A DNA stretch of 54,227 bases from a virus. Lineage: Duplodnaviria > Caudoviricetes. Positions 7,520 to 36,274 of this stretch are shown here, in pieces. The position numbers and the translations under genes were made by a program. The stretch spans positions 1 to 54,227 of the IMG/VR virus record IMGVR_UViG_3300032249_000551. One strand, written 5' to 3'. Under the pieces are notes generated by a model, which was not told the origin of the DNA, ran no database searches, and worked only from the letters and a program-made list of their open reading frames with translations. Position 1 is the stretch's first letter. Each line of letters opens with the position of its first letter.

Positions 7520-7939
7520 TTAGATACGTCCGCCATCTCGTCCATTTTTGACGTAAGACTCTTTGCTAGGGTCAAACTCAGGAAAACTTCTTTTTATAGC
7601 TTTTAGATTATCATCTTGACCAAGTACTGAGGCGACTTGACCCTTAACTTTGAAAGCTTTGCCCGCAAAGATGGTCTTATCACCATGAGCGTTCTTAGGA
7701 AACTCAGTTCCCTCAGCAGGCTCTACCTCATAGACGTTGCCGTGGTGTACTGGGTACTCGCCACCGTCGTTTGCTCCGTAACCACTAATCACTCTACTTT
7801 GGGCGTGCTTAAGTGCGTAATCTAAATCAGAGGTAGCCCAAGCCGTTCCGTGCTCAGTTCTTGATTTAATAACATCCCCTGGCTTGAGAGTCTCAATGGT
7901 CCCGTGGAAGAGGGCGCTAGAGAGGTTATTCTGACTCAT
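7520..7939 (-). CDS. Arr-like (rifampin ADP-ribosyltransferase fold) ADP-ribosyltransferase
   Basis: LFHGT...LKPGDVI, AWATSDLDYA..HA, GNVYEVEP: motif order of the Arr-type ART fold. Confidence 0.7.
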   Translation of the reverse strand: MSQNNLSSALFHGTIETLKPGDVIKSRTEHGTAWATSDLDYALKHAQSRVISGYGANDGGEYPVHHGNVYEVEPAEGTEFPKNAHGDKTIFAGKAFKVKGQVASVLGQDDNLKAIKRSFPEFDPSKESYVKNGRDGGRI

Positions 7940-7964
7940 AAGCCAATATTACGGCTACTGCCTT
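7940..7964 (-). promoter_or_regulatory. Leaderless promoter: AAGGCAGTAGCC box + TAATAT -10
   Basis: Minus strand AAGGCAGTAGCC-G-TAATAT-TGGCTT-ATG. Confidence 0.6.
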
Positions 7965-8128
7965 ACTCTGTACCCCTCAACCATGGCTGAGCCCTGGGGG
8001 TTCCCTGCGGAAAACACGCTTAACTGTGGGGGTCATTTGTGCCAAAAGATTATTATTTATTAACGATTACATTCACAACTTGTTTCTTAAAGAAGTATTT
8101 ATTGTTCTATCTCCGCATAAATAATTAA

Positions 8129-8592
8129 AATAACTATTGTTTGATAGCAACTTTGATAGCGAGATTAAATAACTATTGGCTACTGCTTATTTTTATCGCA
8201 ATCTTTGTGCGGATACCACCAGACTAAACACCAACTTTGCAAGTTGTAATCAGGTATAAACAACTAACTAAATACATTGTGTATCACTAACTATTTACTA
8301 TGTGATTACAAGTTATGTATTCAATAGTTATGTAAATACATTCATTCATCACACTAATAACTATTCTCTTATCTATCTCTTATTACTTATTCTCTTATGT
8401 ATTTATTACTACTCATTGTTCTTTTGCATAAGGGGGCTACGCCCCCTTGCACCCCCACTCATTCGCAATAGTTATTAGCACTTGCAATCTGCAAACAGAT
8501 AGTTAAAGAAACAACTAACAATAAATAACTATTAACTAATCTTCTTTTACTTGACACTTCAGTTATTCCTGCACCTTCTATTAAATAACTAT
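8129..8592. repeat. Dispersed AATAACTAT repeats in AT-rich non-coding DNA
   Basis: Direct copies at 8129, 8168, 8356, 8524, 8584; inverted ATAGTTAT at 8324 and 8468. Confidence 0.7.
8430..8448. other. GC-rich hairpin AAGGGGGC-TAC-GCCCCCTT in AT-rich DNA
   Basis: Perfect 8-bp inverted repeat followed by GCACCCCC. Confidence 0.75.
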
Positions 8593-8785
8593 CTATAACT
8601 TCTTTTGTATTTGTTTCTTATTTAATTTATCTGTTACTACTTATGTTTATTTATTCTTTTGTTATTACTGAAAATAAATACACAAAATAACTTTGCGTTT
8701 CTTCTTTTGTATCTCTTATCTATCTACGGACAGCGCACCGAATTACTCATAAAAAATTGCGTTATTTATGCGTAAGACACGCGAG

Positions 8786-8815
8786 TTGCAGACCCCTGCC
8801 CCTATCTGTTACGCT
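8786..8815 (+). promoter_or_regulatory. Sigma-A/70-type promoter of the plus-strand block
   Basis: TTGCAG (8786) - 18 bp - TACGCT (8810) with extended TGn; predicted TSS near 8822. Confidence 0.6.
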
Positions 8816-8821
8816 TGCGCC

Positions 8822-9200
8822 AGCAAGTTGCTCTCCCGAATGGGACAGGCGGTTAGCGAAATAAACAAAAGTTAGTTTTGTTTTTTTATTTTGTATGCAA
8901 CGCAATCGTGTGCGTTATTAAATAAAACAAAATAAATAAATACAAACTTCTTTTGTGCAAACTCGCTACGAAATTATTTACTGCTTGTATGTATTACATA
9001 CAACACTTCAAGTGTGCAAGTGGTAAATAAAAATAGAAACTATAAATTGAATGATGTAATAACTACGCAACTGCGACAAACTCAAATGGTTATTACTAAG
9101 TGACATTGTTTCTATCTTGCAAATTATTTAATTACATTCTGCTATTCACTAATTGTTATGAGCGATTAGTGAATAGCGGTGTGCAATTAACTTGCACTAA
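8822..9200 (+). ncRNA. Putative structured leader/ncRNA (about 380 nt, four consecutive long stems)
   Basis: Stems 8854-8968, 8974-9030, 9033-9115 and 9118-9196; the last has a 17-bp core with G-U pairs on the plus strand; no ORF. Confidence 0.6.
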
Positions 9201-9231
9201 CAACTAACAACTAATACGAATGGAGTAACAA

Positions 9232-9621
9232 ATGACAACAACAACTATCGCACCTGTAATCACTAACACAACAACACGACAGACAGATAGAAAACAAAAA
9301 CACACAATTACTTTCAACGATAAGTTTCGTGTGAATGTTACAACTATTCACGACAAAGAACGCAAGGCGTATCGCACTTATGTTTCTGTTGTTACTTTTG
9401 AGATTAGTAACAACTTTGTTATTGAGAAGTCAATCGGTTCTATCTTTGGTGGTTTGTACGCAACTGTTATTCGCACTACGCCATGCAATCGTTTCTCTCA
9501 ATCTTCTTTTGACATTGAGTGTGCAAATGCTCGCAACGATTACAACGCACTTAGCGGTCACTATGAACAACAAATAACTGCACTACTAAACGACAAGGAG
9601 TTACTAAGTGAAACTAATTAA
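9232..9621 (+). CDS. Hypothetical protein, first gene of plus-strand block
   Basis: 129 aa; GGAG RBS preceded by CAACTAA repeats. Confidence 0.8.
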   Translation: MTTTTIAPVITNTTTRQTDRKQKHTITFNDKFRVNVTTIHDKERKAYRTYVSVVTFEISNNFVIEKSIGSIFGGLYATVIRTTPCNRFSQSSFDIECANARNDYNALSGHYEQQITALLNDKELLSETN

Positions 9622-9751
9622 ACGATTACTAATTGCAATCATCTTTATCGTTGTTATTGCTTTCTTGTTTGATGTAACAACACCTGCTGAGTGCAAAAAT
9701 AAATCGGTTGAACAACTATCTCAATTCTGCATTGACCTTCTTTATCCTTAA
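9608..9751 (+). CDS. Small membrane protein (47 aa)
   Basis: GTG start with AAGGAG RBS; MKLIKRLLIAIIFIVVIAFLFDVTTPAECKNKSVEQLSQFCIDLLYP. Confidence 0.65.
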   Translation: MKLIKRLLIAIIFIVVIAFLFDVTTPAECKNKSVEQLSQFCIDLLYP

Positions 9752-9797
9752 TCACTTGCAATCTTCTTTAACAACTAATAAGAAACGGAGTAAATAA

Positions 9798-9911
9798 ATG
9801 TCAGTACCTACCGCAACAATAGATGAACAAGGCGTGACTATTTTCTTTGATGAAGATGTTACTTCTTACTTCCAACTCGTATCGTTACTGAATAAAAAGG
9901 AGAATAAATAA
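9798..9911 (+). CDS. Small hypothetical protein (37 aa)
   Basis: ACGGAG RBS and the shared start-associated motif. Confidence 0.55.
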   Translation: MSVPTATIDEQGVTIFFDEDVTSYFQLVSLLNKKENK

Positions 9912-10172
9912 ATGCGAATTAAAATCGTTAAAGATAATCACCCAAGCAACGAAGAACTAATTACTTCAATGTTAATTGCAATTCAATTCTTAAATCCTGA
10001 ACACGAAAAAGAAGATGTGTTATCGGGTGTCTTGCAATTACTAAGTGAAATCGTTGATAGAAAGAAACTTCTTTTACTTGCAGATAGCGTGTGCAATTCT
10101 GCAAGTAATAAGTTTGATGAAGTTAAATCGCTATACGAAATGTTCCAACTAGACACCGACATAAACAACTAA
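9912..10172 (+). CDS. Hypothetical protein
   Basis: 86 aa, AAGGAG RBS. Confidence 0.7.
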   Translation: MRIKIVKDNHPSNEELITSMLIAIQFLNPEHEKEDVLSGVLQLLSEIVDRKKLLLLADSVCNSASNKFDEVKSLYEMFQLDTDINN

Positions 10173-10197
10173 CAACTAACAGAAACGGAATAAATAA

Positions 10198-11556
10198 ATG
10201 ACATACGCAATTCTTATCTCAGGTCAAGTAAATACAACAGATACAAAGCAAGTAATTATCGCAAGTCATAACGGCAACACTCATACCTTCATGCGTGTAA
10301 CAAATGGTGGTCGTGGTGAAAGTAATTCATGGAGTGCAAGAGAGTTAGATGAACACAACTCAATCGGCACACTTGATTACAACTTAATTGGTGAAGTGCT
10401 ATCAACACCACTAACAAGTGTTGATGAAGTTGCACTTAACAATAACGAGATACCAAATGTTTTAATACAGAAACTTACAAAGCAGTATCGCTTACGCAAT
10501 CTAACAATAGATACAACACGCACTATCCAAAGTGTTGTTGATGAAGTGCAGGTACTAATTGAACAAGACCCTGCACTATTAAGTAAGTATCGCTCTGACG
10601 GCAGAAGCGATAAGCACGCCACAACTAAGACCGAAGGGACAAAACAAATGACACCACGCAACACAATCAACCCAATCGCTAACGAAGCAATAGTGATTAA
10701 CAAAGTAGAACGCAACGATAAAGAAGAACGCACACTTGCGTTCATACCTTCTTTAACAAGTGAAGCGGTACGCACTTATGTACCACGCACTTTCGCTGGC
10801 AACTTAACAGAAGACCAACTCTATACATACGCATTGAAGTCAAAGAAGAATGTATCTATTCAAGGTCATGCAGGTACAGGCAAGACAACTTCTTTAATGA
10901 CATTCTCTGCAAAGAATGGTTTGGAGTTTGGTTCAATGAGTTGTAATGCAGGTGTAGAGCCTTCACAATTCTTTGGTCGTTATGTTCCAAATGCAGAAGG
11001 TAAGTTGGAATGGCGTGACGGATTATTTACGCACTTCTTTCGTAATGGTGGAGTGTTAGTAATTGACGAAGCGAACTTTCTTCCACAGAAAATTGCTTCT
11101 GTATTACATGGTGTTCTTGACGACCGCCGAGTATTAACTTTGTTAGAGCATGACGGCGAAGTTATTACTGCAAATGAAAACTTACTTATCGCTATGTGCT
11201 ACAACGACGGCTACAAAGGTACTTCTAAGTTTAACGAAGCGTTCGCAGACCGCTTTTGGATTAAGTTAAACTTTGAGTACGACACCGACATTGAAAAGAA
11301 GTTTATTCCTTCTAAAACTTTGTTGGAACTTGCAACTTCAATGCGAGCAGACACAATCGCTGGCACTTATGAAACACCTGTATCAACTCGTTTGCTAAAG
11401 CAGTTTGTTGATTTAGCACAGAACCTTAGTTACGACTTTGCAGTTGATAACTTTGTTAATAACTTCCGCGAAGATGAACGCTCTAGCGTGAAACTTCTTT
11501 TGGACTCTCAACGACACAACTTGGAACTAGAACTTATCGGAAAGGTGAGTGAGTGA
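10198..11556 (+). CDS. MoxR/CbbQ/CobS-type AAA+ ATPase
   Basis: Walker A GHAGTGKT, Walker B LVIDEAN, W.DG motif, NEAFADRF, VSTR sensor 2; about 150-aa N-terminal extension. Confidence 0.9.
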   Translation: MTYAILISGQVNTTDTKQVIIASHNGNTHTFMRVTNGGRGESNSWSARELDEHNSIGTLDYNLIGEVLSTPLTSVDEVALNNNEIPNVLIQKLTKQYRLRNLTIDTTRTIQSVVDEVQVLIEQDPALLSKYRSDGRSDKHATTKTEGTKQMTPRNTINPIANEAIVINKVERNDKEERTLAFIPSLTSEAVRTYVPRTFAGNLTEDQLYTYALKSKKNVSIQGHAGTGKTTSLMTFSAKNGLEFGSMSCNAGVEPSQFFGRYVPNAEGKLEWRDGLFTHFFRNGGVLVIDEANFLPQKIASVLHGVLDDRRVLTLLEHDGEVITANENLLIAMCYNDGYKGTSKFNEAFADRFWIKLNFEYDTDIEKKFIPSKTLLELATSMRADTIAGTYETPVSTRLLKQFVDLAQNLSYDFAVDNFVNNFREDERSSVKLLLDSQRHNLELELIGKVSE

Positions 11557-13535
11557 CAATGAGTACCTTCTTTATAGAACAACAAGCAGAACAAGAAAAG
11601 AAGCAAGCACTAAAGCGCAAGCGCGTTGGTGCGTTAGCAGGTGTGTTCTCTAAAACTCTTTCGGTATTAACAACTCACAAAATTAGTGTGAATGTTGTTG
11701 ATAGAAAAGACATTGGCGCACCTGCTTATTCATCTACAAAAGAAGTTTGGTTGAATGTTGCTCACATAAAAGATGACTTCACACCAAATGCAATCGCTAG
11801 TTACAACGGACTTGCGTTCCACGAATTAGCACACTTGCGATTTACTCCACGCAACGGCTCACGACTTGTTCAGAAGATTAAAGATGAACAAGCACAGAAT
11901 GAATTGTGGGAAGCGTTCAACTGTTTAGAAGATAGTCGTATTGAGTTTCTTCTTACAGGTTGGTTGCCTTCTACAAAAGCGTGGCTTGTTGCAACTATGT
12001 GTGACTACTTGCTCTCTGATGAAGAAGCAATAAGTCGTGCGTTCCCACTTGTTTATGGTCGCAAGTATTTACCTGTTGAATTGCGACAACTAGCAAGTGA
12101 CAACTTTATTAAGCCTGAGATACAACAAGAGATAGCAAATGTTATTGACAAATACAATGCGCTATCTCTTGTCGGTAATGAGAATGTTGATGTTGCTTTC
12201 AATCTCATAAAGAAGTTTGCAGAACTACTTAGTGAGTTACCTGCACTTCCACAATCACCACAAAGCGGTGAAGGTGAAGGCACAACAATTACTATCCGTA
12301 TCAAAAGCCCACATGGTCACGAAGGCAGACCAACACAAGGCTACGAGTCAAGTTCTGTGCGCCCTGCAACTAAAGAAGAACAAGAGCGTGCTAAGAAGAA
12401 CGCACAAAAGAATGTTGTTGAAGTAATCATAGATACAACACCAAAAGAAAATACAAAAGAAGATGTGTCCGAAGGGACAAACTCTGATACACCAACACAA
12501 TCAACACCAACACAATCAACACCAAAAGATAATTCTTTTGATGATGATTTTGAGTTTGATGATTTTGATTTTGATGATGATGTTGATGATGATGTTCAAT
12601 CACCTTCTACACCAAAAGAAGGTGGCAAGGGTATCGGTAACGAAGCAGGTAAAACAGGTAGCAACAATCAAGTAACTGATTTACTTAATGACATTCTTTC
12701 TGATGTTGTTAAAGAAGTTAGTAAAGGTATCAACGACATAGCAAAGCAACTCGGTGTTGATACACAACTTGACGGCGGTAACGCTAGAACTCCTAACAAA
12801 GCAGATTACAACGAAGTGCGTATTCCCGAAGAACTATCTTTGCTTGCAAAGAAGTTTGGACTTGAACTAGAACGCTTACAAGCAGAGTATGACCCTGCTT
12901 GGTTAAATGGTGAGCGTTCAGGAAAATTAAATGCAGGTCGTTACTTACGCGGTGACGAATTAGATACTGTGTTTGATGAATGGTCAGAGGGTCGTGATGA
13001 TGTTGTAAGTATTGAAGCGGTTATTCTTTTAGACCGAAGTGGGTCAATGAGTGGTCGTAATGCTGACAACGCTTACAAATCTATGTGGGCAATCAAGAAG
13101 GCACTAGAGCGTGTAGAAGCGCGAACAACTGTTGTTACTTTTGATAGTCGTACCAATCTTCTTTATGGTGCAGATGAAAAAGCAGGTACAACAATCAGAG
13201 ATGCTGGTGCTGACGGCGGTACAAATCCAAACGACTCACTTCTTTATGCAAAGCGTGTTCTTGCAGAGAGCGACAAAGCAATCAAGGTTCTATTCATGAT
13301 TACTGACGGCGCATGGAATACAGAAGAAGGCGAGAAGGCAGTTACAGACATGAAGAACGCAGGTGTTCTTACTTGTCAGGCACTTATCTCTAACTATGCA
13401 CACACCGCAGAGGACTTAGATAACTACCGACATTCTTTTGAGTTAATGACTTCAATGCAATCTGCAAAAGACATTCTCACTCTCGGTAAGAACTTAGTGC
13501 GACTTGCAATCACACGCAATCTAGTTAATGCGTAA
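11553..13535 (+). CDS. VWA-domain protein (CobT-like partner of the AAA+ ATPase) with N-terminal HExxH domain
   Basis: FHELAH and N.LED.RIE; acidic linker; MIDAS DRSGSM, GGT, ITDG. Confidence 0.88.
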   Translation: MTMSTFFIEQQAEQEKKQALKRKRVGALAGVFSKTLSVLTTHKISVNVVDRKDIGAPAYSSTKEVWLNVAHIKDDFTPNAIASYNGLAFHELAHLRFTPRNGSRLVQKIKDEQAQNELWEAFNCLEDSRIEFLLTGWLPSTKAWLVATMCDYLLSDEEAISRAFPLVYGRKYLPVELRQLASDNFIKPEIQQEIANVIDKYNALSLVGNENVDVAFNLIKKFAELLSELPALPQSPQSGEGEGTTITIRIKSPHGHEGRPTQGYESSSVRPATKEEQERAKKNAQKNVVEVIIDTTPKENTKEDVSEGTNSDTPTQSTPTQSTPKDNSFDDDFEFDDFDFDDDVDDDVQSPSTPKEGGKGIGNEAGKTGSNNQVTDLLNDILSDVVKEVSKGINDIAKQLGVDTQLDGGNARTPNKADYNEVRIPEELSLLAKKFGLELERLQAEYDPAWLNGERSGKLNAGRYLRGDELDTVFDEWSEGRDDVVSIEAVILLDRSGSMSGRNADNAYKSMWAIKKALERVEARTTVVTFDSRTNLLYGADEKAGTTIRDAGADGGTNPNDSLLYAKRVLAESDKAIKVLFMITDGAWNTEEGEKAVTDMKNAGVLTCQALISNYAHTAEDLDNYRHSFELMTSMQSAKDILTLGKNLVRLAITRNLVNA

Positions 13536-13540
13536 TCAAA

Positions 13541-13567
13541 TGGGGGCAATCAAATCGGTTGCCCCCA
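13541..13567 (+). terminator. Intergenic stem-loop (terminator or processing/stability hairpin)
   Basis: TGGGGGCAATC-AAATC-GGTTGCCCCCA; no U-tract on the plus strand. Confidence 0.5.
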
Positions 13568-13595
13568 ATAACAAAAACGAAACGGAGTAATACAA

Positions 13596-14177
13596 ATGAA
13601 ACTATCTGAAATTAAATTAAATGGTGAGTATGCAATCGTTCCTTCATGGACATACAACAATAAATCTTCAAGAGATGTAGATACTGTACGAGAGAATGAT
13701 GTTGTTAAAGCAACTATCTATTCACTTGATAAGTATGAGTACGAGCCAAGCAATCGCAAAGACTCACCCAACTTTACAAAAGCACAACAAGGCAATCGTT
13801 CTGTTGGAATTATTGTTAAGGCAGTAGATAACAATGGCAAAGAGTATTACTGGACTTCACGACTTGCAGATGTTATTGCAGAGTGGTCTGTGCTTGAACC
13901 TAAGTGGAACTCTGCAAAGTCTAAAGAAGAAGCAGAGCGACTCTTGCGTGAAGAAGCGCAACGCAAAGAGCGTGAGTTGCGCCGACAAGTAGAAGAAGAA
14001 GTAGAACGCTCTCGCGTATCTGTTGTTGCTACTTCTAAAGACTTGTTAGGAGAACAGACAACTGTTGAAGTAACTACAAATGGTTACGGATTAGATTACA
14101 AAGCAAGTGTAAATCTTTCTCTCAAAGAGTTTGAGTTGTTAATTGAAATGGCGTTCGCTGGTAAGGAGAACTACTAA
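13596..14177 (+). CDS. Hypothetical protein with central coiled coil
   Basis: 193 aa; GAAACGGAG RBS. Confidence 0.8.
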   Translation: MKLSEIKLNGEYAIVPSWTYNNKSSRDVDTVRENDVVKATIYSLDKYEYEPSNRKDSPNFTKAQQGNRSVGIIVKAVDNNGKEYYWTSRLADVIAEWSVLEPKWNSAKSKEEAERLLREEAQRKERELRRQVEEEVERSRVSVVATSKDLLGEQTTVEVTTNGYGLDYKASVNLSLKEFELLIEMAFAGKENY

Positions 14178-14320
14178 TGCAACTGGAACTAACTAACACA
14201 GAAATCGCAGTAATACTTGAAGCGTTAGGTAAGGAGAAGGCTTACCTAAATGCTCATGGTCACAAAGAGTCTGCTCACAAAGTGAGTGACCTTCAATCAA
14301 AGATAAAGAACGGAGAATAA
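14177..14320 (+). CDS. Small hypothetical protein (47 aa)
   Basis: MQLELTNTEIAVILEALG...; TAAGGAG RBS, TAATG coupling. Confidence 0.6.
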   Translation: MQLELTNTEIAVILEALGKEKAYLNAHGHKESAHKVSDLQSKIKNGE

Positions 14321-14321
14321 A

Positions 14322-14717
14322 ATGGGACAAGAACTATTAGAACGCACAGGTTGGGTCAAGAAGCCACGAAAGTATTTTGTTGCTACCAATAGCAAGGGAT
14401 ACAGAGTGATACGCGGTAGCGCAGATAGAGATTACTTCTATTGTGTAATCGCAAAAGAACTTAATGCGTGGGGTTCTATCTATGCCTCATTCTCTGCAAC
14501 AGAACACAACGCAAAGAAGTATTGCAAGACATGGAACAACAGAGAAGCAGACCGCTATGAGGTTGTGAAGTGTGTGCAGGTAACTGCTAAAGAAGTAAGA
14601 GCAATCAAAAAAGAAATTGCTTTAGAAGTAATCAAATACAAAGAAGAACAAGAACGACTACAACAAGAGTCCGCAGGGACAAACCCATGCACAGAATACG
14701 AAAAGGAGAATAACTAA
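14322..14717 (+). CDS. Hypothetical protein
   Basis: 131 aa; ACGGAG RBS. Confidence 0.75.
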   Translation: MGQELLERTGWVKKPRKYFVATNSKGYRVIRGSADRDYFYCVIAKELNAWGSIYASFSATEHNAKKYCKTWNNREADRYEVVKCVQVTAKEVRAIKKEIALEVIKYKEEQERLQQESAGTNPCTEYEKENN

Positions 14718-15424
14718 TGGCAACACTATCTACACACCGCACAGGCGGTGCAAGAGGCGCAAATGGATACGGAGAGTATCAAGTGCGCTATGCAAGTCCT
14801 AAGCAACAAATCTTCTTAAAGACACTACTGGAAACAAAGGCACATTCTTTTGGAGATGTAGATGTCGCAACACTTAATGTGCAAGGTGCTGGAGAACTAA
14901 TCACTAAGTTACTTGCACTACCTAACAAGGCTGGAGTTGTTGTTGCACCAAGTGAGAAGCAACTTTCTTTTGCAAAGTCGCTAACTGAAAAGAAAGAAGG
15001 CGGTGTTGATACTCTCAATCACTATCTACGCAATCGCAAAGTATCTTCTTTAGAAGAACTAGACCGCAAAGATGTGTCAGAGATTATTAACGCATTGAAG
15101 TTTGCAAAAGAAGTTACACCGCCAATCAAGATTACAGAAGTTGGTGCTTACATACTTGACGGAATTGTTTATTCAATCCGACAGAACTCTGAAACAAAGC
15201 GTTGGAGTGTTTGGACTTACTCTGATGTTGCAAAGAAGTATGTACGCAACGACAAAGAGTTTGGTGTTATCTACAAGTTAGATACAACAGACCGCTTAAC
15301 ACTAGAACTTGCTATTAAGTATTCTGCACAGGTTGGTATCTGTGTGCATTGTGGCAAGACCTTAACAGTATTGAAATCTGTTGCTGGTGGTATCGGACCA
15401 ATTTGTTCTAAAAGATACAACTAA
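14717..15424 (+). CDS. DUF6011-like Zn-finger protein
   Basis: C-terminal CVHCGKTLT...S...GIGPIC; two (A/P)S(P/E)KQ helical repeats. Confidence 0.7.
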   Translation: MATLSTHRTGGARGANGYGEYQVRYASPKQQIFLKTLLETKAHSFGDVDVATLNVQGAGELITKLLALPNKAGVVVAPSEKQLSFAKSLTEKKEGGVDTLNHYLRNRKVSSLEELDRKDVSEIINALKFAKEVTPPIKITEVGAYILDGIVYSIRQNSETKRWSVWTYSDVAKKYVRNDKEFGVIYKLDTTDRLTLELAIKYSAQVGICVHCGKTLTVLKSVAGGIGPICSKRYN

Positions 15425-15438
15425 GGAAGGAGTAACAA

Positions 15439-15750
15439 ATGTTAATAAGTGAGTTAAAAGAACTTATAGCAAATTACAAAGATAGTGACTCTGTTGTTGT
15501 TGCGCTATGGGATAAAGAATGTTTCAAGGCGTTAAATACAGAAGCACGAATAGTTACTGACAGAGAGTGGAACTATGTTGCCGAAAACTTTAGCGTGCAA
15601 ATGCACGACCAAATGTTAGGCGCAAGTATTCGCGGAGTGTTAGAAAACAAAATGCAATCAACTGATGAAGCAACAGAAGTGTTTATTGCTGACTTCATGG
15701 AACAGTACCGAACAGGTACAACAGAAGAACAACTATGGGACAAGGAGTAA
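15439..15750 (+). CDS. Hypothetical acidic protein (probable paralog of next gene)
   Basis: AAGGAG RBS; ends EQLWDKE. Confidence 0.75.
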   Translation: MLISELKELIANYKDSDSVVVALWDKECFKALNTEARIVTDREWNYVAENFSVQMHDQMLGASIRGVLENKMQSTDEATEVFIADFMEQYRTGTTEEQLWDKE

Positions 15751-15753
15751 CAA

Positions 15754-16080
15754 ATGAGAACAGTTAAAGAAGTTATAGATTATTTATCCACACTTAATCA
15801 AGACGATAAAATCTGGGCAATCTGGGTTGATAAAGAAGAACTAGCACAGATAATTACAGATACAGAGTACGAAGATGAAAACGGAAATCTACTTGAAGTC
15901 ACACCAAAAGAAATTAGTAATGACTTTCTTGAAGATGTAATGCAAAGCGTAGATAACGCGGAGTATGTGTGGGACAGGTTTTCAGATGAAGTAAGAGATG
16001 AAACAAGGAATAAGTGGGAAAAACTACATGAAAAAATAACCGAAGCAAAAGAAGATACAGACCTATGGGATAAGGAGTAA
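15754..16080 (+). CDS. Hypothetical acidic protein (probable paralog of previous gene)
   Basis: AAGGAG RBS; ends TDLWDKE. Confidence 0.75.
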   Translation: MRTVKEVIDYLSTLNQDDKIWAIWVDKEELAQIITDTEYEDENGNLLEVTPKEISNDFLEDVMQSVDNAEYVWDRFSDEVRDETRNKWEKLHEKITEAKEDTDLWDKE

Positions 16081-16084
16081 GTAA

Positions 16085-16513
16085 ATGACAACACTAGAGG
16101 TACAACAAGAAACGAAAGTAAGTGTAAGTGGCAATCTATCGTTCTATTGTTATGTGACACTAAAAGATAGTGAGCAGATAATCATAGACATTCCCGAAAA
16201 AGAATGGACAGGTGGAACTTACAAATCTACTGGTGTGATAAAGAAGGTTAGGTTAGAACAAATCTGTTACCAATCGGGATACGGAGATAATCCGCAAGTT
16301 TATCTTTACTCAATAGAGTTTCGTGGGTTTAGAAAAGACAAAGGGTTGCGGTACAGAACAGAACGACTACATAGCCCTGACCAAGAAGTGATAGACCAAA
16401 TACCTGATGAGTACCACACTTACGCGAGAGTCGCGTTTGTAAAGAAGGTAGCAGAACTACAAGAAGAACTAACGACTATGACTAATGGGGGAATACAAAT
16501 TGGAAAAAAATAA
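16085..16513 (+). CDS. Hypothetical protein
   Basis: 142 aa; TAAGGAG RBS. Confidence 0.75.
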   Translation: MTTLEVQQETKVSVSGNLSFYCYVTLKDSEQIIIDIPEKEWTGGTYKSTGVIKKVRLEQICYQSGYGDNPQVYLYSIEFRGFRKDKGLRYRTERLHSPDQEVIDQIPDEYHTYARVAFVKKVAELQEELTTMTNGGIQIGKK

Positions 16514-16535
16514 CACAACCGAAGGGACAAAAAGT

Positions 16536-17156
16536 ATGCGACTTACTAAGGGAATGAAACAACACAAAGAACAAATCTTGGTGGGTACAAGAGTACCTAA
16601 ATCAGATTTAACTTTACCAAAAGAAGTTTCAGACATTCTTATTGGACTACCACTAACAGAACGCAAAGCGTATGCAAGCGAGTTGCGTAAGGTTGGTTGG
16701 ACACTTCAATCTTTAGCGACACCGCTAAACCTAACGAGAGAGTCCATTCGTCTTTATACACTTGTGGAACACACAGGAGAAGTGTTAGCAAAGATTAGAC
16801 ACTTACCTATTGTTCAACCGCCTGTTATAGAAGTCTTTGTTGAAAGAGTGAAGCGTGTAAAGCCTGACCCAAAGGTGATAGCGCAACTAAAAGAACTTCA
16901 ACCTAAAGCGTTTATGGTTAGAGGTAAAGGCAAATCCAATCGTGAAGAAGCAGAACTTTATACACGACTTATCTATGAACTAATGGAGAGTGGTGTATCG
17001 GGTTATCGCATAGCAAAAGAACTTGGTGTTACCCATAGTGCGCTGGCGTTTCGTTTAGTGCGTTACGGATACACAACAAGCAACGGAACTTCTCGTTCAT
17101 ACAGACAACTAACACACCGAAAGACAGGAGAGGGAAATGCCGAACTGGTGCAGTAA
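16536..17156 (+). CDS. Double helix-turn-helix DNA-binding protein
   Basis: GWTLQSLATPLNLTRESIR and GVSGYRIAKELGVTHSAL; start reassigned to MRLTKG just after the 13-mer motif. Confidence 0.75.
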   Translation: MRLTKGMKQHKEQILVGTRVPKSDLTLPKEVSDILIGLPLTERKAYASELRKVGWTLQSLATPLNLTRESIRLYTLVEHTGEVLAKIRHLPIVQPPVIEVFVERVKRVKPDPKVIAQLKELQPKAFMVRGKGKSNREEAELYTRLIYELMESGVSGYRIAKELGVTHSALAFRLVRYGYTTSNGTSRSYRQLTHRKTGEGNAELVQ

Positions 17157-17775
17157 CGAATTAAAGATACAAGGTAGTCCTAAAGAACTTTCTAAACTTA
17201 TTAAGAAGGTTCAGATTACTAAAAGTGAAGCAACAGAAAATCATTGTGAGTCTGTGTTCTCTTGTCACAGAGTCATTCCAAGACCACTTGATAAAGAAGA
17301 TGAGTGGTACGAATGGAATGTTGCTAACTGGGGAAGTAAGTGGGACTTAAATGATGTTCGCTTTGACGGAGATGTAGATGATAAAGAAGTTTCTTATTAC
17401 TTTGAGAGTGCTTGGTCGCCTGTTGTACCTGTGATTGAAGCACTAGCAAAAGAGTTTAAGAAACTTTCTTTTACTTATACTTTCTATGAAACTGGTAGTG
17501 ATTACTGGGGCGAATTAGAGTATAAGAAAGGAGAACTGATAAGTGAAGATAGTGGTGATGTAAGTAGCGCAAGTTGCGAACGACTTGAATACTTAATGGG
17601 TAGTCACCACTACTGCGAAGATTGCTACGACCAAATAGAGTGCTACGGAGATAACACCGCAAAACTCTGTGAAGATTGTTTAGCAAAAGAAGATGAAGAA
17701 GATGTTTCTTTATGGGAAGGAGAAACAAGTGACTATCAAGCAAATAAATCTTTTGCAGATGTATCAAGTATCTAA
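17137..17775 (+). CDS. DUF1281/YubB ferredoxin-like domain protein
   Basis: MPNWC.N, WYEWNVANWGSKWD, FESAWSP motifs plus C-terminal CxxC..CxxC. Confidence 0.75.
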   Translation: MPNWCSNELKIQGSPKELSKLIKKVQITKSEATENHCESVFSCHRVIPRPLDKEDEWYEWNVANWGSKWDLNDVRFDGDVDDKEVSYYFESAWSPVVPVIEALAKEFKKLSFTYTFYETGSDYWGELEYKKGELISEDSGDVSSASCERLEYLMGSHHYCEDCYDQIECYGDNTAKLCEDCLAKEDEEDVSLWEGETSDYQANKSFADVSSI

Positions 17776-17968
17776 AGGTATTTATCAAACAAAAGATGAT
17801 TTGTTTCAGATAAAGAAGATAGACAACAAATGGAGTTGGTTCATACGAAGTGGCTCTGCTTGGGTAGCAAAAGACAAAAGACAATACAAAACAAAGTCGT
17901 GGTGCGAAAGGTGCATTGAAGTTGAAAGCGGTTTTGTTTATGATGATGAAACACTATGGGAAGGGTAA
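17729..17968 (+). CDS. Hypothetical protein
   Basis: GTG start after AAGGAG; ends DETLWEG. Confidence 0.6.
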   Translation: MTIKQINLLQMYQVSKGIYQTKDDLFQIKKIDNKWSWFIRSGSAWVAKDKRQYKTKSWCERCIEVESGFVYDDETLWEG

Positions 17969-17975
17969 AAGAAGA

Positions 17976-18164
17976 ATGGCAATTAAGTCGTACAAAGTAG
18001 AACTAACTACCGCGATTGCAGTAACACTAAACAATGACGAACACACCGCTAACAACTTGTGGGAAGTTATTGTAGGTAAAGCAAAAACTCAAATGATAGA
18101 CCAAGACATGAACGACAAGAACTATGTGTTGAAGGTTGTATCCGAAGTTACAGAAAGGGAATAA
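17976..18164 (+). CDS. Hypothetical protein
   Basis: Start reassigned to MAIKSYK. Confidence 0.55.
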   Translation: MAIKSYKVELTTAIAVTLNNDEHTANNLWEVIVGKAKTQMIDQDMNDKNYVLKVVSEVTERE

Positions 18165-18167
18165 AAA

Positions 18168-18341
18168 ATGATTTGCGATTATTGTTTGTCAAAAGAAACA
18201 GAGTTAATCTTCTGTAACTTATGCGAAACACACCAAGATAAAATGTCTAGCCTACTTGTTGTTTGCGCAAATCATAAAGAACTAGGACTAGCAAAAATAA
18301 AAAGGGAAGGAAGAAAAAATGGGAAAGTTATTCATTCGTAA
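18168..18341 (+). CDS. Small Cys-rich Zn-binding protein (57 aa)
   Basis: MICDYC...FCNLC...VCANH; AAGGGA RBS. Confidence 0.55.
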   Translation: MICDYCLSKETELIFCNLCETHQDKMSSLLVVCANHKELGLAKIKREGRKNGKVIHS

Positions 18342-18474
18342 GATTACAGAAGCAGATGAACTATGGTTCTGCGATAACTGTAATCAACAAGGTGTCCGAG
18401 CAAATGGCAAAGACATTGTGAGTGCTAAAGAAGTTGTGATGTGGGTCTGTTACAACTGTGTTGGCAAGGTATGA
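18319..18474 (+). CDS. Small Zn-finger protein (51 aa)
   Basis: WFCDNC...WVCYNC; GGAAGGA RBS. Confidence 0.55.
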   Translation: MGKLFIRKITEADELWFCDNCNQQGVRANGKDIVSAKEVVMWVCYNCVGKV

Positions 18475-18662
18475 AGTGCCAAGAGAAAACTGCTTACCCA
18501 ACTAAATACAAAGCAGAAAAAGCCATGAGTTTGATTTGGAAAAATCATTGGCTAAATAACAATAGAAAGAAACCTTGCGCTACTTACAAATGCGAAATCT
18601 GCGGTAAGTGGCACTTAACAAGCCAAGCCCGAAGGGACAAAACAAATAGCCCAAAGAACTAA
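18471..18662 (+). CDS. Small phage Zn-binding protein (YxCxxCGxWHLTS type)
   Basis: MKC.EK.AY...YKCEICGKWHLTS; ATGA coupling. Confidence 0.7.
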   Translation: MKCQEKTAYPTKYKAEKAMSLIWKNHWLNNNRKKPCATYKCEICGKWHLTSQARRDKTNSPKN

Positions 18663-19230
18663 GACCTGTATTGGTTGTTACAAGGCACTACCACTAACAA
18701 GGTTCAACAAGTATCCGCAAGGCTCATACGGCAGACGAGCAAGGTGTAAGTCGTGCCAAGCAATCCACCGCAAAGGTTCTGCCGATAGAACGGCAAAGCG
18801 TTTAGCGTTGGAGTCACAAGGTAAAAGACAATGTAGCAAGTGCGGAAAGAAGAAAGCCTTATCTTCTTTTCAACTTGCTACCCGCAAAGGCAGAACAAAA
18901 AGCAGAGAAGGTGTCTGCAAATCTTGTGTAAGTGAAAGACAAAAGAACAATCACTTGACTAAAAATCAAGAGATAAGGTTGTTCATCTACAACTACAAAA
19001 GAACTCACCCTTGCCAAGTGTGTGGTGAAACTGATGTAGAGATGTTGGAGTTTGACCACATTCACTCAAAGAAGTTTGACATTAGCAACGGAGTATCTAA
19101 AGGTGTGAGTATGCACTTGCTAAAGAAGGAACTTGCTAAGTGTGTTGTGTTATGTTCCAATCACCACCGCAAGAAAACGCACGCTGAACGCAACACTTGG
19201 TTGCACAGGCTTGCAAAAGAAGAAGCATAA
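18646..19230 (+). CDS. HNH endonuclease with two N-terminal Zn-knuckle repeats; no canonical start for the full-length frame
   Basis: Frame open from 18619; KTCIGC...CKSC and RQCSKC...CKSC, then CQVCG...LEFDH...KCVVLCSNHH; candidate ATA start at 18646. Confidence 0.7.
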   Translation: MAQRTKTCIGCYKALPLTRFNKYPQGSYGRRARCKSCQAIHRKGSADRTAKRLALESQGKRQCSKCGKKKALSSFQLATRKGRTKSREGVCKSCVSERQKNNHLTKNQEIRLFIYNYKRTHPCQVCGETDVEMLEFDHIHSKKFDISNGVSKGVSMHLLKKELAKCVVLCSNHHRKKTHAERNTWLHRLAKEEA

Positions 19231-19242
19231 AGAAACTACATT

Positions 19243-19288
19243 AAAGGGGATAGGTTGCCAACTGGCAATCTATCCCCTTTTTTGTTTT
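19243..19288 (+). terminator. Rho-independent terminator
   Basis: GGGGATAGGTTGCCA/TGGCAATCTATCCCC stem followed by T-tract. Confidence 0.85.
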
Positions 19289-19321
19289 GCCTTCTAAGTT
19301 ACTCGCTGGTAGGTTGTCCTT
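19287..19321 (+). promoter_or_regulatory. Leaderless sigma-A-type promoter of the recombinase
   Basis: TTGCCT - 17 bp - TAGGTT - 6 nt - ATG. Confidence 0.7.
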
Positions 19322-20674
19322 ATGGCTTACGCAATCAAACGCAAAGGGCGATTTACCGCCTATTACCGCCAAGACGGAAAAGTCAAATCCGTAGGCACAT
19401 TCTCATCTAGGGCTAAAGCAATTAACGCTGGATTACTCGCCGAAGAAGGCGAGTTTAATCTAATGCCCGAAAACCAAAAGACATTCAACACTTATTTAGA
19501 GCAATTAGCACTCTCACACGACATCAGAGTAATCACCCGTAAGAATTACATTACCCTGCTAAAGAAGTATGCCCAACCTTCTTTAGGGTCTAAGCGCATC
19601 TCCGCTATCACCAAGAAAGACATAAAGACCCTGTTTGATAATCTCGCAAATCAAGGGATTAGCCCAAGCACAATCTCACACCTAAAGACTTCTTTAGGTT
19701 CTCTATTCAGGCTCGCCGTTGATGATGACGCAATAGCCACAAACCCAACCCACCGCATAAGACTAAGCACGCCCAAGCCAGACCCCACATACACCCTAGA
19801 GCCTAAAGACTTTCAGGCTATCTTAAAGAACTTACCCACAGACGGAAGCCGTCTTTTAGCCCAGTTTCTTGTTGTTAGCGGCTGCCGATACGGAGAAGCC
19901 ACAGAACTTAGAGTCAAGGACTTTAACTTTGAGTCAAAGGAAGTCTATGTCAGACGCACAGTTTCAGATGTAGGCTACGCCTACCAGCCCGCAGGGACAA
20001 AGTCCGAGGGGACAAGATTTCTCATTGTGCCAGCTACCAAGAACGGCAATAAAAGAACTGTTGTTCTGAGCTCAGCTCTAGTATCAGAGATAAAGAAGTT
20101 TGTAAAGGCAAAAGCCTTAGCAAAAGAAGACCTAGTCTTCTCAAAGCACCTGGTTGAGAAGAAGAGTAAAATAGAAAGCCCTATCACAAGCGTAGGGAAG
20201 CCTTACACCATTGGAAGCAGGAGATTCCAACACGCAACGGCGTATTCATACAATGTCGGCGGTTGTAGGTGTGAAGCATGTAAAGAAGCGGTCAGGGAGT
20301 ACCGCAATCACTATAGAAAGGACAAGGGAAAGGGCAAGGTAGAAAGCCTTAGCAAAAGCACTAGCAAAAGCCTTAGCAAAAGCGAAAGCCCTAGCAAAAG
20401 CCTTAGCAAAAGCCTTAGCGAAAGACACCTACCTCGTGACAAGTGGCGAGCCATTTGGAACGAAGCCATCAACAAGTCAGGGATTGGTTGGTACCCCACT
20501 ACTCACGACCTTCGGCACGCTAACGCTACCCAGTTGTTAAAGAACGGGGTAGATGTGCATGAGGTCAAAGAGCGGTTAGGTCACCAGTCAATCGTAACTA
20601 CGGAGAGATACCTGCATCGTATCCGTCACCAGCAGTCAAACGCAGCCGAGGTTGTGAATGACTATTTGGAGTGA
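19322..20674 (+). CDS. Tyrosine recombinase/integrase with inserted Cys-rich module and SLSK repeats
   Basis: Catalytic R (GCRYGE), K (ATKNG), HxxR (HDLRH), H (LGHQ), Y (TERYLH). Confidence 0.92.
   Translation: MAYAIKRKGRFTAYYRQDGKVKSVGTFSSRAKAINAGLLAEEGEFNLMPENQKTFNTYLEQLALSHDIRVITRKNYITLLKKYAQPSLGSKRISAITKKDIKTLFDNLANQGISPSTISHLKTSLGSLFRLAVDDDAIATNPTHRIRLSTPKPDPTYTLEPKDFQAILKNLPTDGSRLLAQFLVVSGCRYGEATELRVKDFNFESKEVYVRRTVSDVGYAYQPAGTKSEGTRFLIVPATKNGNKRTVVLSSALVSEIKKFVKAKALAKEDLVFSKHLVEKKSKIESPITSVGKPYTIGSRRFQHATAYSYNVGGCRCEACKEAVREYRNHYRKDKGKGKVESLSKSTSKSLSKSESPSKSLSKSLSERHLPRDKWRAIWNEAINKSGIGWYPTTHDLRHANATQLLKNGVDVHEVKERLGHQSIVTTERYLHRIRHQQSNAAEVVNDYLE
20343..20424 (+). repeat. Tandem 12-bp repeat (AAAGCCTTAGCA)n, about 6-7 imperfect units
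   Basis: Read directly; related copies at 20108-20126 and 21219-21238. Confidence 0.85.
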
Positions 20675-21207
20675 TTATGAAACTAACAACAAAAGGAAAG
20701 ATAGTGTTTGGGTCGTTGTTTACAGCGATGTTTTTGATGGCAGGAATGTTGGCTTTACCGCCAGCATTTAGCCCAACAAAAGCCGAAGCACAAGCAATAG
20801 AGCAAGAAGCGCAAGAAGATGTACTAACCAAGTATGTCAATGCAGATGATTTAACTGACTCACAGTTAGTAGAGTTACTGCAAGCCGTAGGCTTCAAAGG
20901 TCACGACCTTAAAGAAGCATGGGCTATTGCGAAAAAAGAATCACATGGTAATCCGCTATCACACAACGGTAATCGTAAGACAGGAGACAACTCCTACGGT
21001 CTATTCCAAGTAAACATGCTTGGTTCATTAGGTGATGCAAGGCGAGATAAGTTCAATTTGGCTTCTAATGCTGAACTGTTCAACCCTGTGGTTAATGCCC
21101 AAATCGCTTATCACATGAGCGATGGTGGCACAGATTGGAGCGCATGGAAAGGTACTGAAACTGACGTAGTAAAGCGTTGGTTAAAGAAGTTTCCATCAGA
21201 GCAATAA
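20671..21207 (+). CDS. Secreted/membrane-anchored lysozyme-like lytic transglycosylase
   Basis: N-terminal TM/signal; AIAKKES (catalytic Glu), SYGLFQVN, NP..NA, DWSAW. Confidence 0.85.
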   Translation: MIMKLTTKGKIVFGSLFTAMFLMAGMLALPPAFSPTKAEAQAIEQEAQEDVLTKYVNADDLTDSQLVELLQAVGFKGHDLKEAWAIAKKESHGNPLSHNGNRKTGDNSYGLFQVNMLGSLGDARRDKFNLASNAELFNPVVNAQIAYHMSDGGTDWSAWKGTETDVVKRWLKKFPSEQ

Positions 21208-21252
21208 TCGTAGCCAAAGCAAAAGCCATAGCAAAAGCAGGTGCATAATAGG

Positions 21253-21285
21253 AAGCCCCCTCAGAAATGAGGGGGTTTTCTTTTT
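21253..21285 (+). terminator. Rho-independent terminator
   Basis: GCCCCCTCA-GAAA-TGAGGGGGT + T-tract. Confidence 0.85.
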
Positions 21286-21318
21286 GTGTTACACTCAGAG
21301 CAGGGAAGGGGGTAGTAA

Positions 21319-21477
21319 ATGGCAAAGCACCATGACAAAGTTGCAGCAGCACTAGCAACAAGAATTGCAAATATGCCGAAAGGCGATGGTTACAAGAAGC
21401 CTGGAAGTATGAATCCAAGAAAGACTGGATACATGAGCATTAAGGCTAATGAAGCAAAACGGATTTTAAGTAAGTAA
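21319..21477 (+). CDS. Small basic protein (52 aa)
   Basis: MAKHHDKVAAALATRIANMPKGDGYKKPGSMNPRK...; AAGGGGG RBS. Confidence 0.6.
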   Translation: MAKHHDKVAAALATRIANMPKGDGYKKPGSMNPRKTGYMSIKANEAKRILSK

Positions 21478-21481
21478 AGAT

Positions 21482-21510
21482 AAGCCCTGAGAAATCAGGG
21501 CTTTTTCTTT
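21482..21510 (+). terminator. Rho-independent terminator
   Basis: AGCCCTGA-GAAA-TCAGGGCT + T-tract. Confidence 0.85.
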
Positions 21511-21522
21511 ATCATTGTACTT

Positions 21523-21912
21523 ATGTCAATCCCATTAGCCACCTCATACCATGCAGGAGACCGTTCTTTTGAGCGAGATGTAGACTATCGCCTTGCTTCA
21601 AATGTAGTAAAACAAGGTCGTCAAACAATACAGGACAATGGAAACATTCTCCATGAAGACCGTGACCCTGACAATATTGACCATGTTATTAAAGTAATTA
21701 CAACGCCTCACCCAAAGAAGATTGTTACAGTTATTAGAGATAAGACTCGTCCTTTTGCGGAAGAGCAAGCACGAGCAAAAGCAGACAAGACTGCTAAAGG
21801 AGAAGCAAAAGCAAAAGCAGATACAACCGCTGCTCGTAAAGCGGCACAGAAAGCAAGAAAACAAGAACGTTCTGCAGCGGCTAGTAACAAACAGCCAAAA
21901 GGCAAGAAGTAA
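21523..21912 (+). CDS. DUF4258-like (RelE/BECR-like fold) protein with Lys/Ala-rich tail
   Basis: SYHA.DR..ER.V.......V..G...IKVI......IVTV pattern; TATCAT-7nt-ATG. Confidence 0.5.
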   Translation: MSIPLATSYHAGDRSFERDVDYRLASNVVKQGRQTIQDNGNILHEDRDPDNIDHVIKVITTPHPKKIVTVIRDKTRPFAEEQARAKADKTAKGEAKAKADTTAARKAAQKARKQERSAAASNKQPKGKK

Positions 21913-21915
21913 AAG

Positions 21916-21950
21916 AAGAAGCCCCCCAAATAACTGGGGGGCTTTTTCTT
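21916..21950. terminator. Bidirectional terminator between convergent gene blocks
   Basis: AAGAAGCCCCCCA-AATAAC-TGGGGGGCTTTTTCTT. Confidence 0.8.
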
Positions 21951-22034
21951 AGTCTCTACACGAGTAACAAATACCGTCAGAAGATTCTTTTGGTAGTTCT
22001 TCAAACTCTTCAAAACATTTTACGCACTTTATTT

Positions 22035-24152: not shown

Positions 24153-24233
24153 TTGTTAACTTTGTTTACTTTAAAATCTATCTTGGCAGGGTGAACCCTG
24201 ATTCAGGTTAGAGGAAGTACTGTTATCAAGTAA

Positions 24234-35941: not shown

Positions 35942-36274
35942 TTAGTCCTTACTGAAAATAAACTCCTTAAGAGTCATCTTCTTAGCGAATGATTTTTTCC
36001 ACTTACGTATTAAAGCATTTCTTTCTCTGTGGCTCAATCCTCCCCAGATTCCGTGTGGTTCGTCACGAGTGACTGCATCCCACAAACAACCTTTTAGTAC
36101 AGGGCATGGACTTTTACCATTTTCACCAAGGCAATACACCTTAGCTTTATCGGCAATTAATTTATATCGGTCCTTATCTCTTGGAGGATAGAAAATGTCT
36201 TCTTCCTCTTGGCTTTTAGGAGCGGCTCCAAAGCAACGTGCTTTAGACCACCACGGCGATTCATTTTCATACAT
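35942..36274 (-). CDS. whiB: WhiB-family transcription factor
   Basis: W..ARC, FYP, AK..C, CPV...CL..A, GIWGGLS..ER. Confidence 0.9.
   Translation of the reverse strand: MYENESPWWSKARCFGAAPKSQEEEDIFYPPRDKDRYKLIADKAKVYCLGENGKSPCPVLKGCLWDAVTRDEPHGIWGGLSHRERNALIRKWKKSFAKKMTLKEFIFSKD

Follow-up and report, generated by a model that had tools for sequence, protein, structure and literature searches.

Among the repeated asymmetric words of actinobacteriophages, which include stoperators, start-associated sequences (SAS) and the Cluster EC motif, stoperators are the only ones whose function has been demonstrated. In Cluster A mycobacteriophages such as L5 and TipsytheTRex, they are described as asymmetric 13-mers that lie in one orientation with respect to transcription, that differ in motif between related phages, and that are bound by a monomer with two domains, a helix-turn-helix (HTH) and a stoperator domain (PMC9283540, PMC6550527). 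In L5, more than 20 such sites are described, distributed over the whole genome in promoter regions and in short gaps between genes. The SAS of Cluster K mycobacteriophages and Cluster EF Microbacterium phages are described as 13-bp asymmetric repeats in one orientation, located in the non-structural half of the genome at the ribosome-binding position and of unknown function (PMC3203893, PMC7302621); virtually every copy is placed 3–7 bp upstream of a start codon, and about half have an upstream inverted repeat termed ESAS (extended start-associated sequence). Here we describe a repeated 13-mer, CCGMAGGGACAAA, in IMG/VR record IMGVR_UViG_3300032249_000551, the complete 54,227 nt of which constitute the window analyzed. 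The 13-mer is a variant within the known class of repeated asymmetric actinobacteriophage motifs, and is set apart by its in-frame placement within genes, its near-regular spacing and its lineage-specific core. Searches of the literature on stoperators, SAS, freshwater whiB actinophages and asymmetric coding-sequence repeats met with no description of it, the supplementary site lists of the compared papers lying outside this comparison.

A strand-specific 13-mer confined to one gene block

The motif consists of CCG, two free bases and an 8-base core. Six exact copies, designated sites A to F (Table 1), are present in the window, all on the plus strand and none on the minus strand, and 100 dinucleotide shuffles yielded no match; the six positions given in the initial annotation of this sequence are thereby confirmed. 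With up to two mismatches allowed, the window contains 8 matches against 1.57 expected. The two additional matches are a tandem variant at 20004 (CCGAGGGGACAAG; site F'), which has one mismatch to CCGNNGGGACAAA, and a match at 5716 (CCGAAGTGACAAG) that is antisense to a leftward gene and compatible with chance. All six sites fall within the window's only rightward gene block, and scans of both strands found no copy outside that block in the 54-kb window or in the 65-, 54- and 21-kb records of related phages, which carry 4, 4 and 5 copies, on a single strand each and all inside the homologous block. The earlier statement that no full copy exists elsewhere in the window thus holds over the whole record, and the extension to relatives again revealed a strand-specific motif restricted to one block.

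Table 1. Coordinates of the 13-mer sites and of associated features in the window.
Feature	Position	Strand	Sequence	Context
Site A	10631..10643	+	CCGAAGGGACAAA	CobS/MoxR-like ATPase gene 10198-11556, in the linker that precedes the AAA+ module; read TEGTK; in-frame ATG 10648
Site B	12469..12481	+	CCGAAGGGACAAA	Low-complexity linker, VWA gene 11553-13535; read SEGTN; no start codon follows
Site C	14671..14683	+	CCGCAGGGACAAA	Last 16 codons of gene 14322-14717; 46 nt 5' of DUF6011 ATG (14717-15424)
Site D	16519..16531	+	CCGAAGGGACAAA	Codons 7-11 of double-HTH gene (TTG 16500 to 17156); in-frame ATG 16536 4 nt after motif
Site E	18629..18641	+	CCGAAGGGACAAA	Over last 11 codons of zinc-ribbon ORF 18441-18662 (read ARRDK); 4 nt before ATA 18646
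Site F	19989..20001	+	CCGCAGGGACAAA	15-nt in-frame insertion, tyrosine recombinase gene 19322-20674
Site F'	20004..20016	+	CCGAGGGGACAAG	Degenerate tandem copy; old integrase coding sequence (SEGTR; SEGKR in relatives)
Double-HTH protein	16500..17156	+		Two sigma-70-region-4-like HTH modules; PF04545 matches in 32/59 family members
Rightward gene block	9232..21912	+		~9.2-21.9 kb (12.7 kb); sole rightward block of the window, from ORF map and skews
Terminator-like hairpin	19243..19280	+		Strong, with T run; divides sites A-E (~10-kb unit) from site F
Terminator-like hairpin	21250-21281			Strong; splits the rightward block together with 19243..19280
WhiB gene	35942-36274	-		~35.9-36.3 kb
Leftward genes				Ribonucleotide reductase, DpdA-like transglycosylase, exonuclease, RecA/UvsX-like, PolA, helicases, primase, DnaB, DnaC-like, tail and baseplate proteins

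Motif types at homologous positions in related phages

Relatives were retrieved via the CobS-like protein and the double-HTH protein of the block and are identified here by locus number. At homologous positions they bear the element with a core specific to each lineage. The cores GGGACAAA, GTGCAAAA, GGAAAAAA and GTAAAAAA define four motif types, and CTGACAAA is found at two sites of one contig. Type 1 (CCG-MR-GGGACAAA) is found in the window and 16 further loci, and type 2 (CCR-NN-GTGCAAAA) in L009, L012 and L139. Type 3 (CCR-AA-GGAAAAAATC, core GGAAAAAA), a pattern derived after the data had been seen, is found in L010 and L011, which count as one lineage because their sites are identical. 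Type 4 (CCG-NN-GTAAAAAA) is found in L243 (5 copies, 0.01 expected) and L228, and its double-HTH protein is 43–46% identical to that of the window. Shuffle-expected matches across the type patterns range from 0 to 0.05. Each genome keeps the same core at 4–7 unlinked places, and these switch jointly between lineages.

Three loci depart from this scheme. L225 carries a mixed motif set, and L227 keeps the block genes with no motif, showing an ordinary AAGGAG plus ATG at A and D. L216, whose DNA is 86% identical to that of the window, reads CCGYGCTGACAAA at C as well as at D (CCGTGCTGACAAA at its position 2208 and CCGCGCTGACAAA at 4049) and has a type-1 site at E (CCGAAGGGACAAA at 6337), which may reflect a motif set switched only in part or else two classes of site. 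The tree of the VWA gene does not recover types 1 and 2 as clades, and approximately unbiased (AU) tests do not reject such clades (p = 0.20 and 0.07); as far as these sequences indicate, the gene trees do not require any motif type to have arisen more than once, and we claim no independent switches within a type. An exact 14-mer scan of viral contigs returned single matches only, at chance level, three of the contigs later proving to be relatives, and a de novo word search in 60 distant loci with a double-HTH homologue found other repeated words (e.g. CCTGATATAAT), none related to the motif.

The initial annotation had listed a looser copy at 8836 (CCGAATGGGACAG). This sequence belongs to a different element, a conserved hairpin with a terminator-like structure, and is not a copy because its loop differs between relatives and does not track motif type. 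The element (~8790–8895) comprises a conserved stem (CTCTCCC ... GGGACAG) and variable loop, followed by a terminator-like hairpin and T run. It lies in an AT-rich intergenic region between divergent genes, may represent a small RNA and has no Rfam match.

Constraint on the nucleic acid

All six copies and the 20004 variant share one phase, xCC GNN GGG ACA AAx, within a long open reading frame (ORF), as do the copies of all type-1 relatives. Constraint on nucleic acid rather than peptide, as originally proposed, is upheld because every type-1 copy keeps the wobble bases of GGG and ACA unchanged while the second and third bases of the preceding codon (positions 4–5) vary, and because the encoded peptide changes with motif type (EGTK, EVQK, EGKN, AVKN). 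Two of the observations first offered for this constraint, namely one copy between genes and another in a different frame, give way to the common phase of all six. Site D, the copy described as intergenic, is inside the double-HTH gene because that gene starts at a conserved TTG, 16500, kept with its upstream GGAG in 5/5 compared phages and visible in five more loci. Site E does overlap an ORF read as ARRDK, as had been noted, but is also in frame of the next gene. Among distinct site positions, 8/10 share one codon phase (about P = 0.01, binomial arithmetic), a bias and not a rule, and we infer that the small hydrophilic residues encoded in this phase, which linkers tolerate, suffice to explain it.

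The same wobble pattern and the different peptides per type lead us to reject a peptide motif or protease site. More broadly, it is very improbable that the copies lack a present function as relics of short duplications that kept the frame, or that they form a motif at the peptide level: site F is indeed a 15-nt in-frame insertion beside similar sequence, and all copies are in frame, but relics would not be expected to keep wobble bases invariant while a codon's second base varies, to encode a different peptide in each type, to share one core at 4–7 unlinked places that change jointly, or to exceed so clearly the 0 to 0.05 matches given by shuffles. We consider it close to certain that the 13-mer is a functional, co-evolving recognition site.

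A CC-GNA-GG mini-hairpin had been noted within the motif. It is not conserved: 4/6 window sites fold no better than shuffles as single-stranded DNA (in a model with no special triloop bonus), GAG loops are common in type 1, GCT and other loops also occur, types 2 and 4 do not pair, and the other-type motifs CCGCTGTG and CCGCAGTA are unable to form the hairpin. Neither is there a conserved flank across 42 distinct type-1 instances. A search for an antisense or cis RNA partner found no same-strand complementary 7-mers in the block of the window, L008, L009, L010, L139, L219 and L243, the few complementary 7-mer matches lying outside the block or being single.

Individual sites and start codons

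Three of the six copies in the window (A, D and E) end 4 nt before a start codon and the other three (B, C and F) do not, in keeping with the original remark that only some copies precede starts. At A, the position 17 nt from the motif start is occupied by GTG in L007 and L225, ATG in L008 and L010, ATC in L012 and ATT in L139, so that 7/10 phages with a motif at A have an in-frame start of the form ATG, GTG, ATC or ATT there; L009, L243 and L228 have the motif and no start codon at that distance. Type-2 phages also contain GGAG and an in-frame GTG within the motif itself. The homologous place of B holds the lineage's own core in L007, L008, L009, L010, L012, L139, L225, L243 and L228, and neither B nor F has a nearby start codon in any phage examined. 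Site C always lies 20–46 nt before the start of the DUF6011 gene, and in the window this gene has an AAGGAG of its own. The TAA of the type-4 motif at C serves as stop codon of the upstream gene in L243 and L228, and in L009 and L012 site C is replaced by a 12/13 copy ~35 nt inside the DUF6011 gene, in another phase and ~80 nt further on.

Sites E and F are found in type 1 only. The frame that E shares with its downstream neighbor is that of an HNH-like gene (to 19230), for which ATA 18646 is the only plausible start: no ATG, GTG or TTG occurs before 18808, yet the zinc-ribbon N-terminus is conserved. Among type-1 loci this start is ATA in 7/8 and ATC in 1/8 (L131), with ATC also in L216 and a canonical start in none, which suggests that initiation is non-canonical or that the frame is entered from the overlapping ORF upstream by a +1 slip at the AAAA run. 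The window and L008 carry the insertion that constitutes F, and L009 and L010 lack it; the 20004 sequence, which exists in relatives devoid of the 19989 copy, is older than F.

Where the Shine-Dalgarno-like place lacks the motif, a canonical AAGGAG is found, as in L227 at A and D and in L010 at E, the latter again followed by ATG. The motif can thus take the place of a Shine-Dalgarno sequence, although its general role must be another. An RNA-level operator similar to SAS is an explanation nearly as probable as the one favored below, though itself less likely than not. In it, a phage protein that binds RNA, alone or together with the ribosome, would read the motif on the mRNA and so control translation initiation and perhaps the stability or processing of selected genes. 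It would account for the location of all copies on the sense strand, the 4-nt distance at A, D and E with its AAGGAG replacement, the HNH gene devoid of a canonical start in type-1 phages, the constant position of C upstream of DUF6011 and the shared codon phase, and it has a published parallel in the SAS repeats, as far as these are described (PMC3203893, PMC7302621). Shine-Dalgarno-like strings are present in types 1 to 3 (AAGGG, GAGGGG, GAGGTG, AAGGA, all holding AAGG or GAGG), but are absent from the main type-4 form CCGCAGTAAAAAA and from CCGCTGTGCAAAA of L012. The same explanation offers nothing for B and F, which are never near a start, has no obvious use for regular spacing, and finds neither an ESAS-like flank nor a same-strand complementary RNA partner. 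L227 moreover keeps the internal start at A with no motif, so start sites may simply tolerate a purine-rich signal.

Spacing of the sites and strand polarity

The gaps between the six sites are 1838, 2202, 1848, 2110 and 1360 bp, as first reported, with a coefficient of variation (CV) of 0.175. For six random points in 9100–21950, the probability of a minimum gap of at least 1360 is 0.011 and that of a CV no larger than observed is 0.0013; with the block ends counted, these values become 2.8e-4 and 4e-5, respectively, all of them being indicative because the block limits were picked after the data had been seen. Regular spacing recurs in L008, L218 and L219, and the A–B (1.82–1.92 kb) and B–C (2.18–2.28 kb) distances are alike in types 1, 2 and 4. 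The evenness noted earlier is accordingly non-random (P about 0.001–0.01) and retained in relatives.

A second word with a strand pattern occurs in this region. The 9-mer AAAGAAGTT has 28 copies in the whole window against 1.55 expected. Its strand pattern concerns 7585–24413: six copies in 7585–11492 are on the minus strand, the next 13 in a row (11295–21183) are on the plus strand, and those at 22386 and 24405 are again on the minus strand. The plus-strand copies are read in two phases (KEV, KKF), marking it as a nucleic-acid word, and it ranks with the most frequent 9-mers of relatives, whatever their motif type. The strand change near 11.4 kb does not depend on the direction of the genes and could reflect a replication origin or some other polar feature.

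Strand-specific sites about 2 kb apart, the size of Okazaki fragments, in a block that encodes an HNH nuclease and a recombinase could also serve DNA metabolism on one strand, as T5-like nicks, as priming or helicase-loading sites on the lagging-strand template, or as guides for recombination or a translocase, and a replication origin at the 9-mer switch would suit such a role. We regard this as quite improbable, since the copies stop at the borders of the transcription block instead of tracking replication polarity, site A lies to the left of the 9-mer switch point, and HNH similarity does not follow motif type (the protein of type-3 L010 is 84% identical to that of the window, and that of type-1 L008 53%). 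Known primase sites are trinucleotides. Among 20 public sequencing runs, all in the form of assembled contigs and one labeled RNA, four were aligned with the window; they leave parts of it uncovered and carry no strand information. Several public contigs have a terminus only a few bases from A, B, D and F (10630, 12482, 16523 and 20008–20013), a weak hint at most, because contigs cannot show molecule ends; strain variation at positions 4–5 could break assemblies, and such ends are not evidence.

Candidate readers

The protein encoded around site D was considered as a candidate reader of the motif, the initial annotation having listed the double-HTH protein (from 16536) among possible binders. 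Its predicted fold shows two similar modules (pLDDT 82.9), for which the PDB holds no match at E <= 0.001. Phages of different motif types have the same recognition helices in this protein, which therefore does not co-vary with the motif and is rejected as its co-varying partner. Other block genes compared in this way fare no better: for gene 14322–14717, type-1 L218 carries the other allele (34% identity); for gene 17693–17968, the motif-less L227 has a type-2-like copy; gene 15439–15750 is present in type-1 loci only, but is an acidic member of a variable paralogue array; and the HNH, integrase, DUF6011 and zinc-ribbon ORFs show no type pattern. ESM Atlas searches with 16085–16513 and 13596–14177 gave no usable match.

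The sites might also be promoters of one temporal class, read by a phage RNA polymerase or sigma-like factor in the manner of T7 or of T4 middle and late genes. Co-orientation with the genes, restriction to one block, the position of several sites ahead of genes, and a specificity that differs between related phages, as it does among the promoters of T7, T3 and SP6, would all be expected of promoters, but the 4 nt left before the start codon at A, D and E, the mid-gene location of B and F and the lack of a conserved second element or initiation region would not. Sigma70_r2 was not found in the window or in the records of two larger relatives, in a search whose control worked, and the two HTH modules of the neighboring protein do not co-vary; a search for a T7-like polymerase (PF00940) gave no match either, but is uninformative given that its control was also silent. 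Promoters are, in sum, a rather remote explanation.

A possible stoperator-like role

We tentatively favor, with a probability of roughly 0.35, the interpretation of the copies as stoperator-like DNA sites that act directionally on transcription and are read by a candidate lineage-specific phage factor. The 13-mer would then be a cis-acting recognition site through which a fast-evolving factor, specific to each phage lineage, controls expression of the block according to direction. The double-stranded DNA would be bound by a monomeric protein with two DNA-binding parts, whose orientation-dependent action on RNA polymerase crossing the block would make the copies roadblock, pause or re-loading sites, like Cluster A stoperators, and with copies every 1.4–2.2 kb no long stretch would be left uncontrolled. 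The copies would have been squeezed in frame into tolerant linkers and gene ends, non-coding DNA being nearly absent from the rightward block. The existence of a reader protein, its reading of DNA rather than RNA, and the effect on elongation are what we infer here.

Several features of the sites are consistent with this interpretation. Sites turn over with their position kept, F by insertion and C by a move of ~80 nt in type 2, and change together, as C and D do in L216. The bipartite asymmetric shape, with positions 4–5 free (AA, AG, CA, CT or AT) and no conserved flank, would suit a two-part binding protein, and B and F, in mid-gene and away from any start codon, fit a role at the level of transcription better than one in translation. 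To these may be added the 6/6 copies on the sense strand and their confinement to the block, the differing cores at homologous positions, the regular spacing and the published stoperator parallel.

Other observations weigh against it. No motif copy is found in the promoter region, and the 8836 element does not co-vary; there are only 6–7 sites, in a single block and inside genes, as opposed to the more than 20 genome-wide in L5; and L227 retains the genes without the motif. Three sites exactly at the Shine-Dalgarno place and the 8/10 positions in one phase hint at RNA or translation, and with AU tests that do not reject the clades, the motif types may be mere clade markers. The double-HTH model had no fold match to the solved stoperator repressor among its top 50 PDB matches, and the co-variation search found no reader protein among the genes compared, ~20% of the genome lying beyond the records seen. 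Finally, a search of 185,579 species genomes detected no relative of the double-HTH protein of this family; lysogeny, and hence an immunity role, is therefore unsupported despite the integrase.

A metering system is an unlikely variant of a transcription-linked role. In it, the transcription complex (or else the displaced sense strand or nascent RNA) would receive a fast-evolving factor, freshly loaded or renewed, at intervals of ~2 kb over the 12.7-kb block, with in-frame sites, selected spacing, and E and F added by type-1 phages to extend the series. If true, it would constitute a processivity or silencing control not described for any phage.

The phage and the remaining features of the block

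CheckV estimates the window at 54% completeness, and close relatives of its phage reach 99–107 kb, making it a fragment of a roughly 100-kb uncultured freshwater phage. WhiB, also encoded by one distant relative, and the 42% G+C content suggest a low-GC actinobacterium as host. Among the leftward genes, a DpdA-like queuine/tRNA-ribosyltransferase homologue (24234–25742, minus strand) suggests possible 7-deazaguanine DNA modification. A tRNA search found none, and an Rfam search identified no family, its one match scoring under the gathering threshold.

The rightward block encodes a CobS/MoxR-like AAA+ ATPase, VWA, DUF6011, double-HTH and DUF1281_C proteins, several zinc-ribbon ORFs, an HNH-like protein, a tyrosine recombinase and an SLT lysozyme, and its two terminator-like hairpins divide it into a ~10-kb unit and an integrase-lysozyme unit. 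An operator-like inverted repeat (9128–9153/9165–9190), with 26-nt arms that are 85% complementary, lies before the first rightward gene, just 3' of a promoter-like sequence at 9100–9127, and a ~30-nt leader (ACTTGCA.TAACAACTAACAACTAA...) is repeated at 8501, 9190, 9754 and 10155, upstream of the first rightward genes. Several small, mostly acidic block proteins (among 15439–15750, 15754–16080, 17693–17968 and 17137–17775) have LWDKE or LWEG C-termini, and the DUF1281_C protein has the same peptide near its C-terminus, which may be a shared docking tail; the number of paralogues with this tail varies among relatives, with three in L010. The Pfam match to the tyrosine recombinase catalytic domain is split into two stretches, and 12-nt tandem repeats (AGCAAAAGCCTT-like) occupy 20330–20436 within this gene and 21197–21249 at and just past the end of the lysozyme gene.

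Comparison with known systems

Two familiar groups of strand-specific phage sites differ from the 13-mer in several respects. The promoters of the T7 group and the MotA boxes of T4 are likewise co-oriented repeated words whose specificity differs between relatives, but the 13-mer is too close to start codons and has no initiation region or -10 partner. The nick sites of T5 share strand specificity and distances of kilobases, whereas the 13-mer follows a transcription block and not the whole genome.

SAS resemble the 13-mer in being 13-nt asymmetric repeats in one orientation among non-structural genes, at the ribosome-binding position, and conserved beyond what rRNA pairing would account for. 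The window differs in that only 3/6 copies precede a start, two of these starts being internal or non-canonical (ATA), and in that the core varies by lineage, with one type not resembling a Shine-Dalgarno sequence. Relative to SAS as so described, the copies also have no ESAS partner (42 distinct instances) and lie inside ORFs instead of in gaps >50 bp.

The analogy with Cluster A stoperators, drawn at the outset, holds in part. The motif is 13 nt long, asymmetric and multi-copy, in a single orientation in 6/6 copies and in all relatives, with a bipartite look, an internal degenerate position and a sequence that varies between relatives, as described for stoperators. Where the analogy ends is in number and placement: instead of more than 20 genome-wide sites in promoters and intergenic spaces, as reported for L5, there are 6–7 copies, all coding and in frame, near-evenly spaced within one 12.7-kb block and with none at a promoter. 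A further difference is that no repressor was found and that the 185,579 species genomes gave no evidence of lysogeny, with a tyrosine recombinase nonetheless present.

Against this background, what is new is a family of ~100-kb uncultured freshwater phages with sites written in frame into proteins, a near-regular spacing conserved down to relatives at 43–46% protein identity, and at least four clean specificity switches at fixed positions. Together, types 1 to 4, the mixed genome, the partly switched genome and the genome with no sites make up a natural series of matched site sets, which could let co-variation name the reader once complete genomes exist, and could reveal by what route a phage rewrites a multi-site recognition code while the genes in which the sites lie stay intact.

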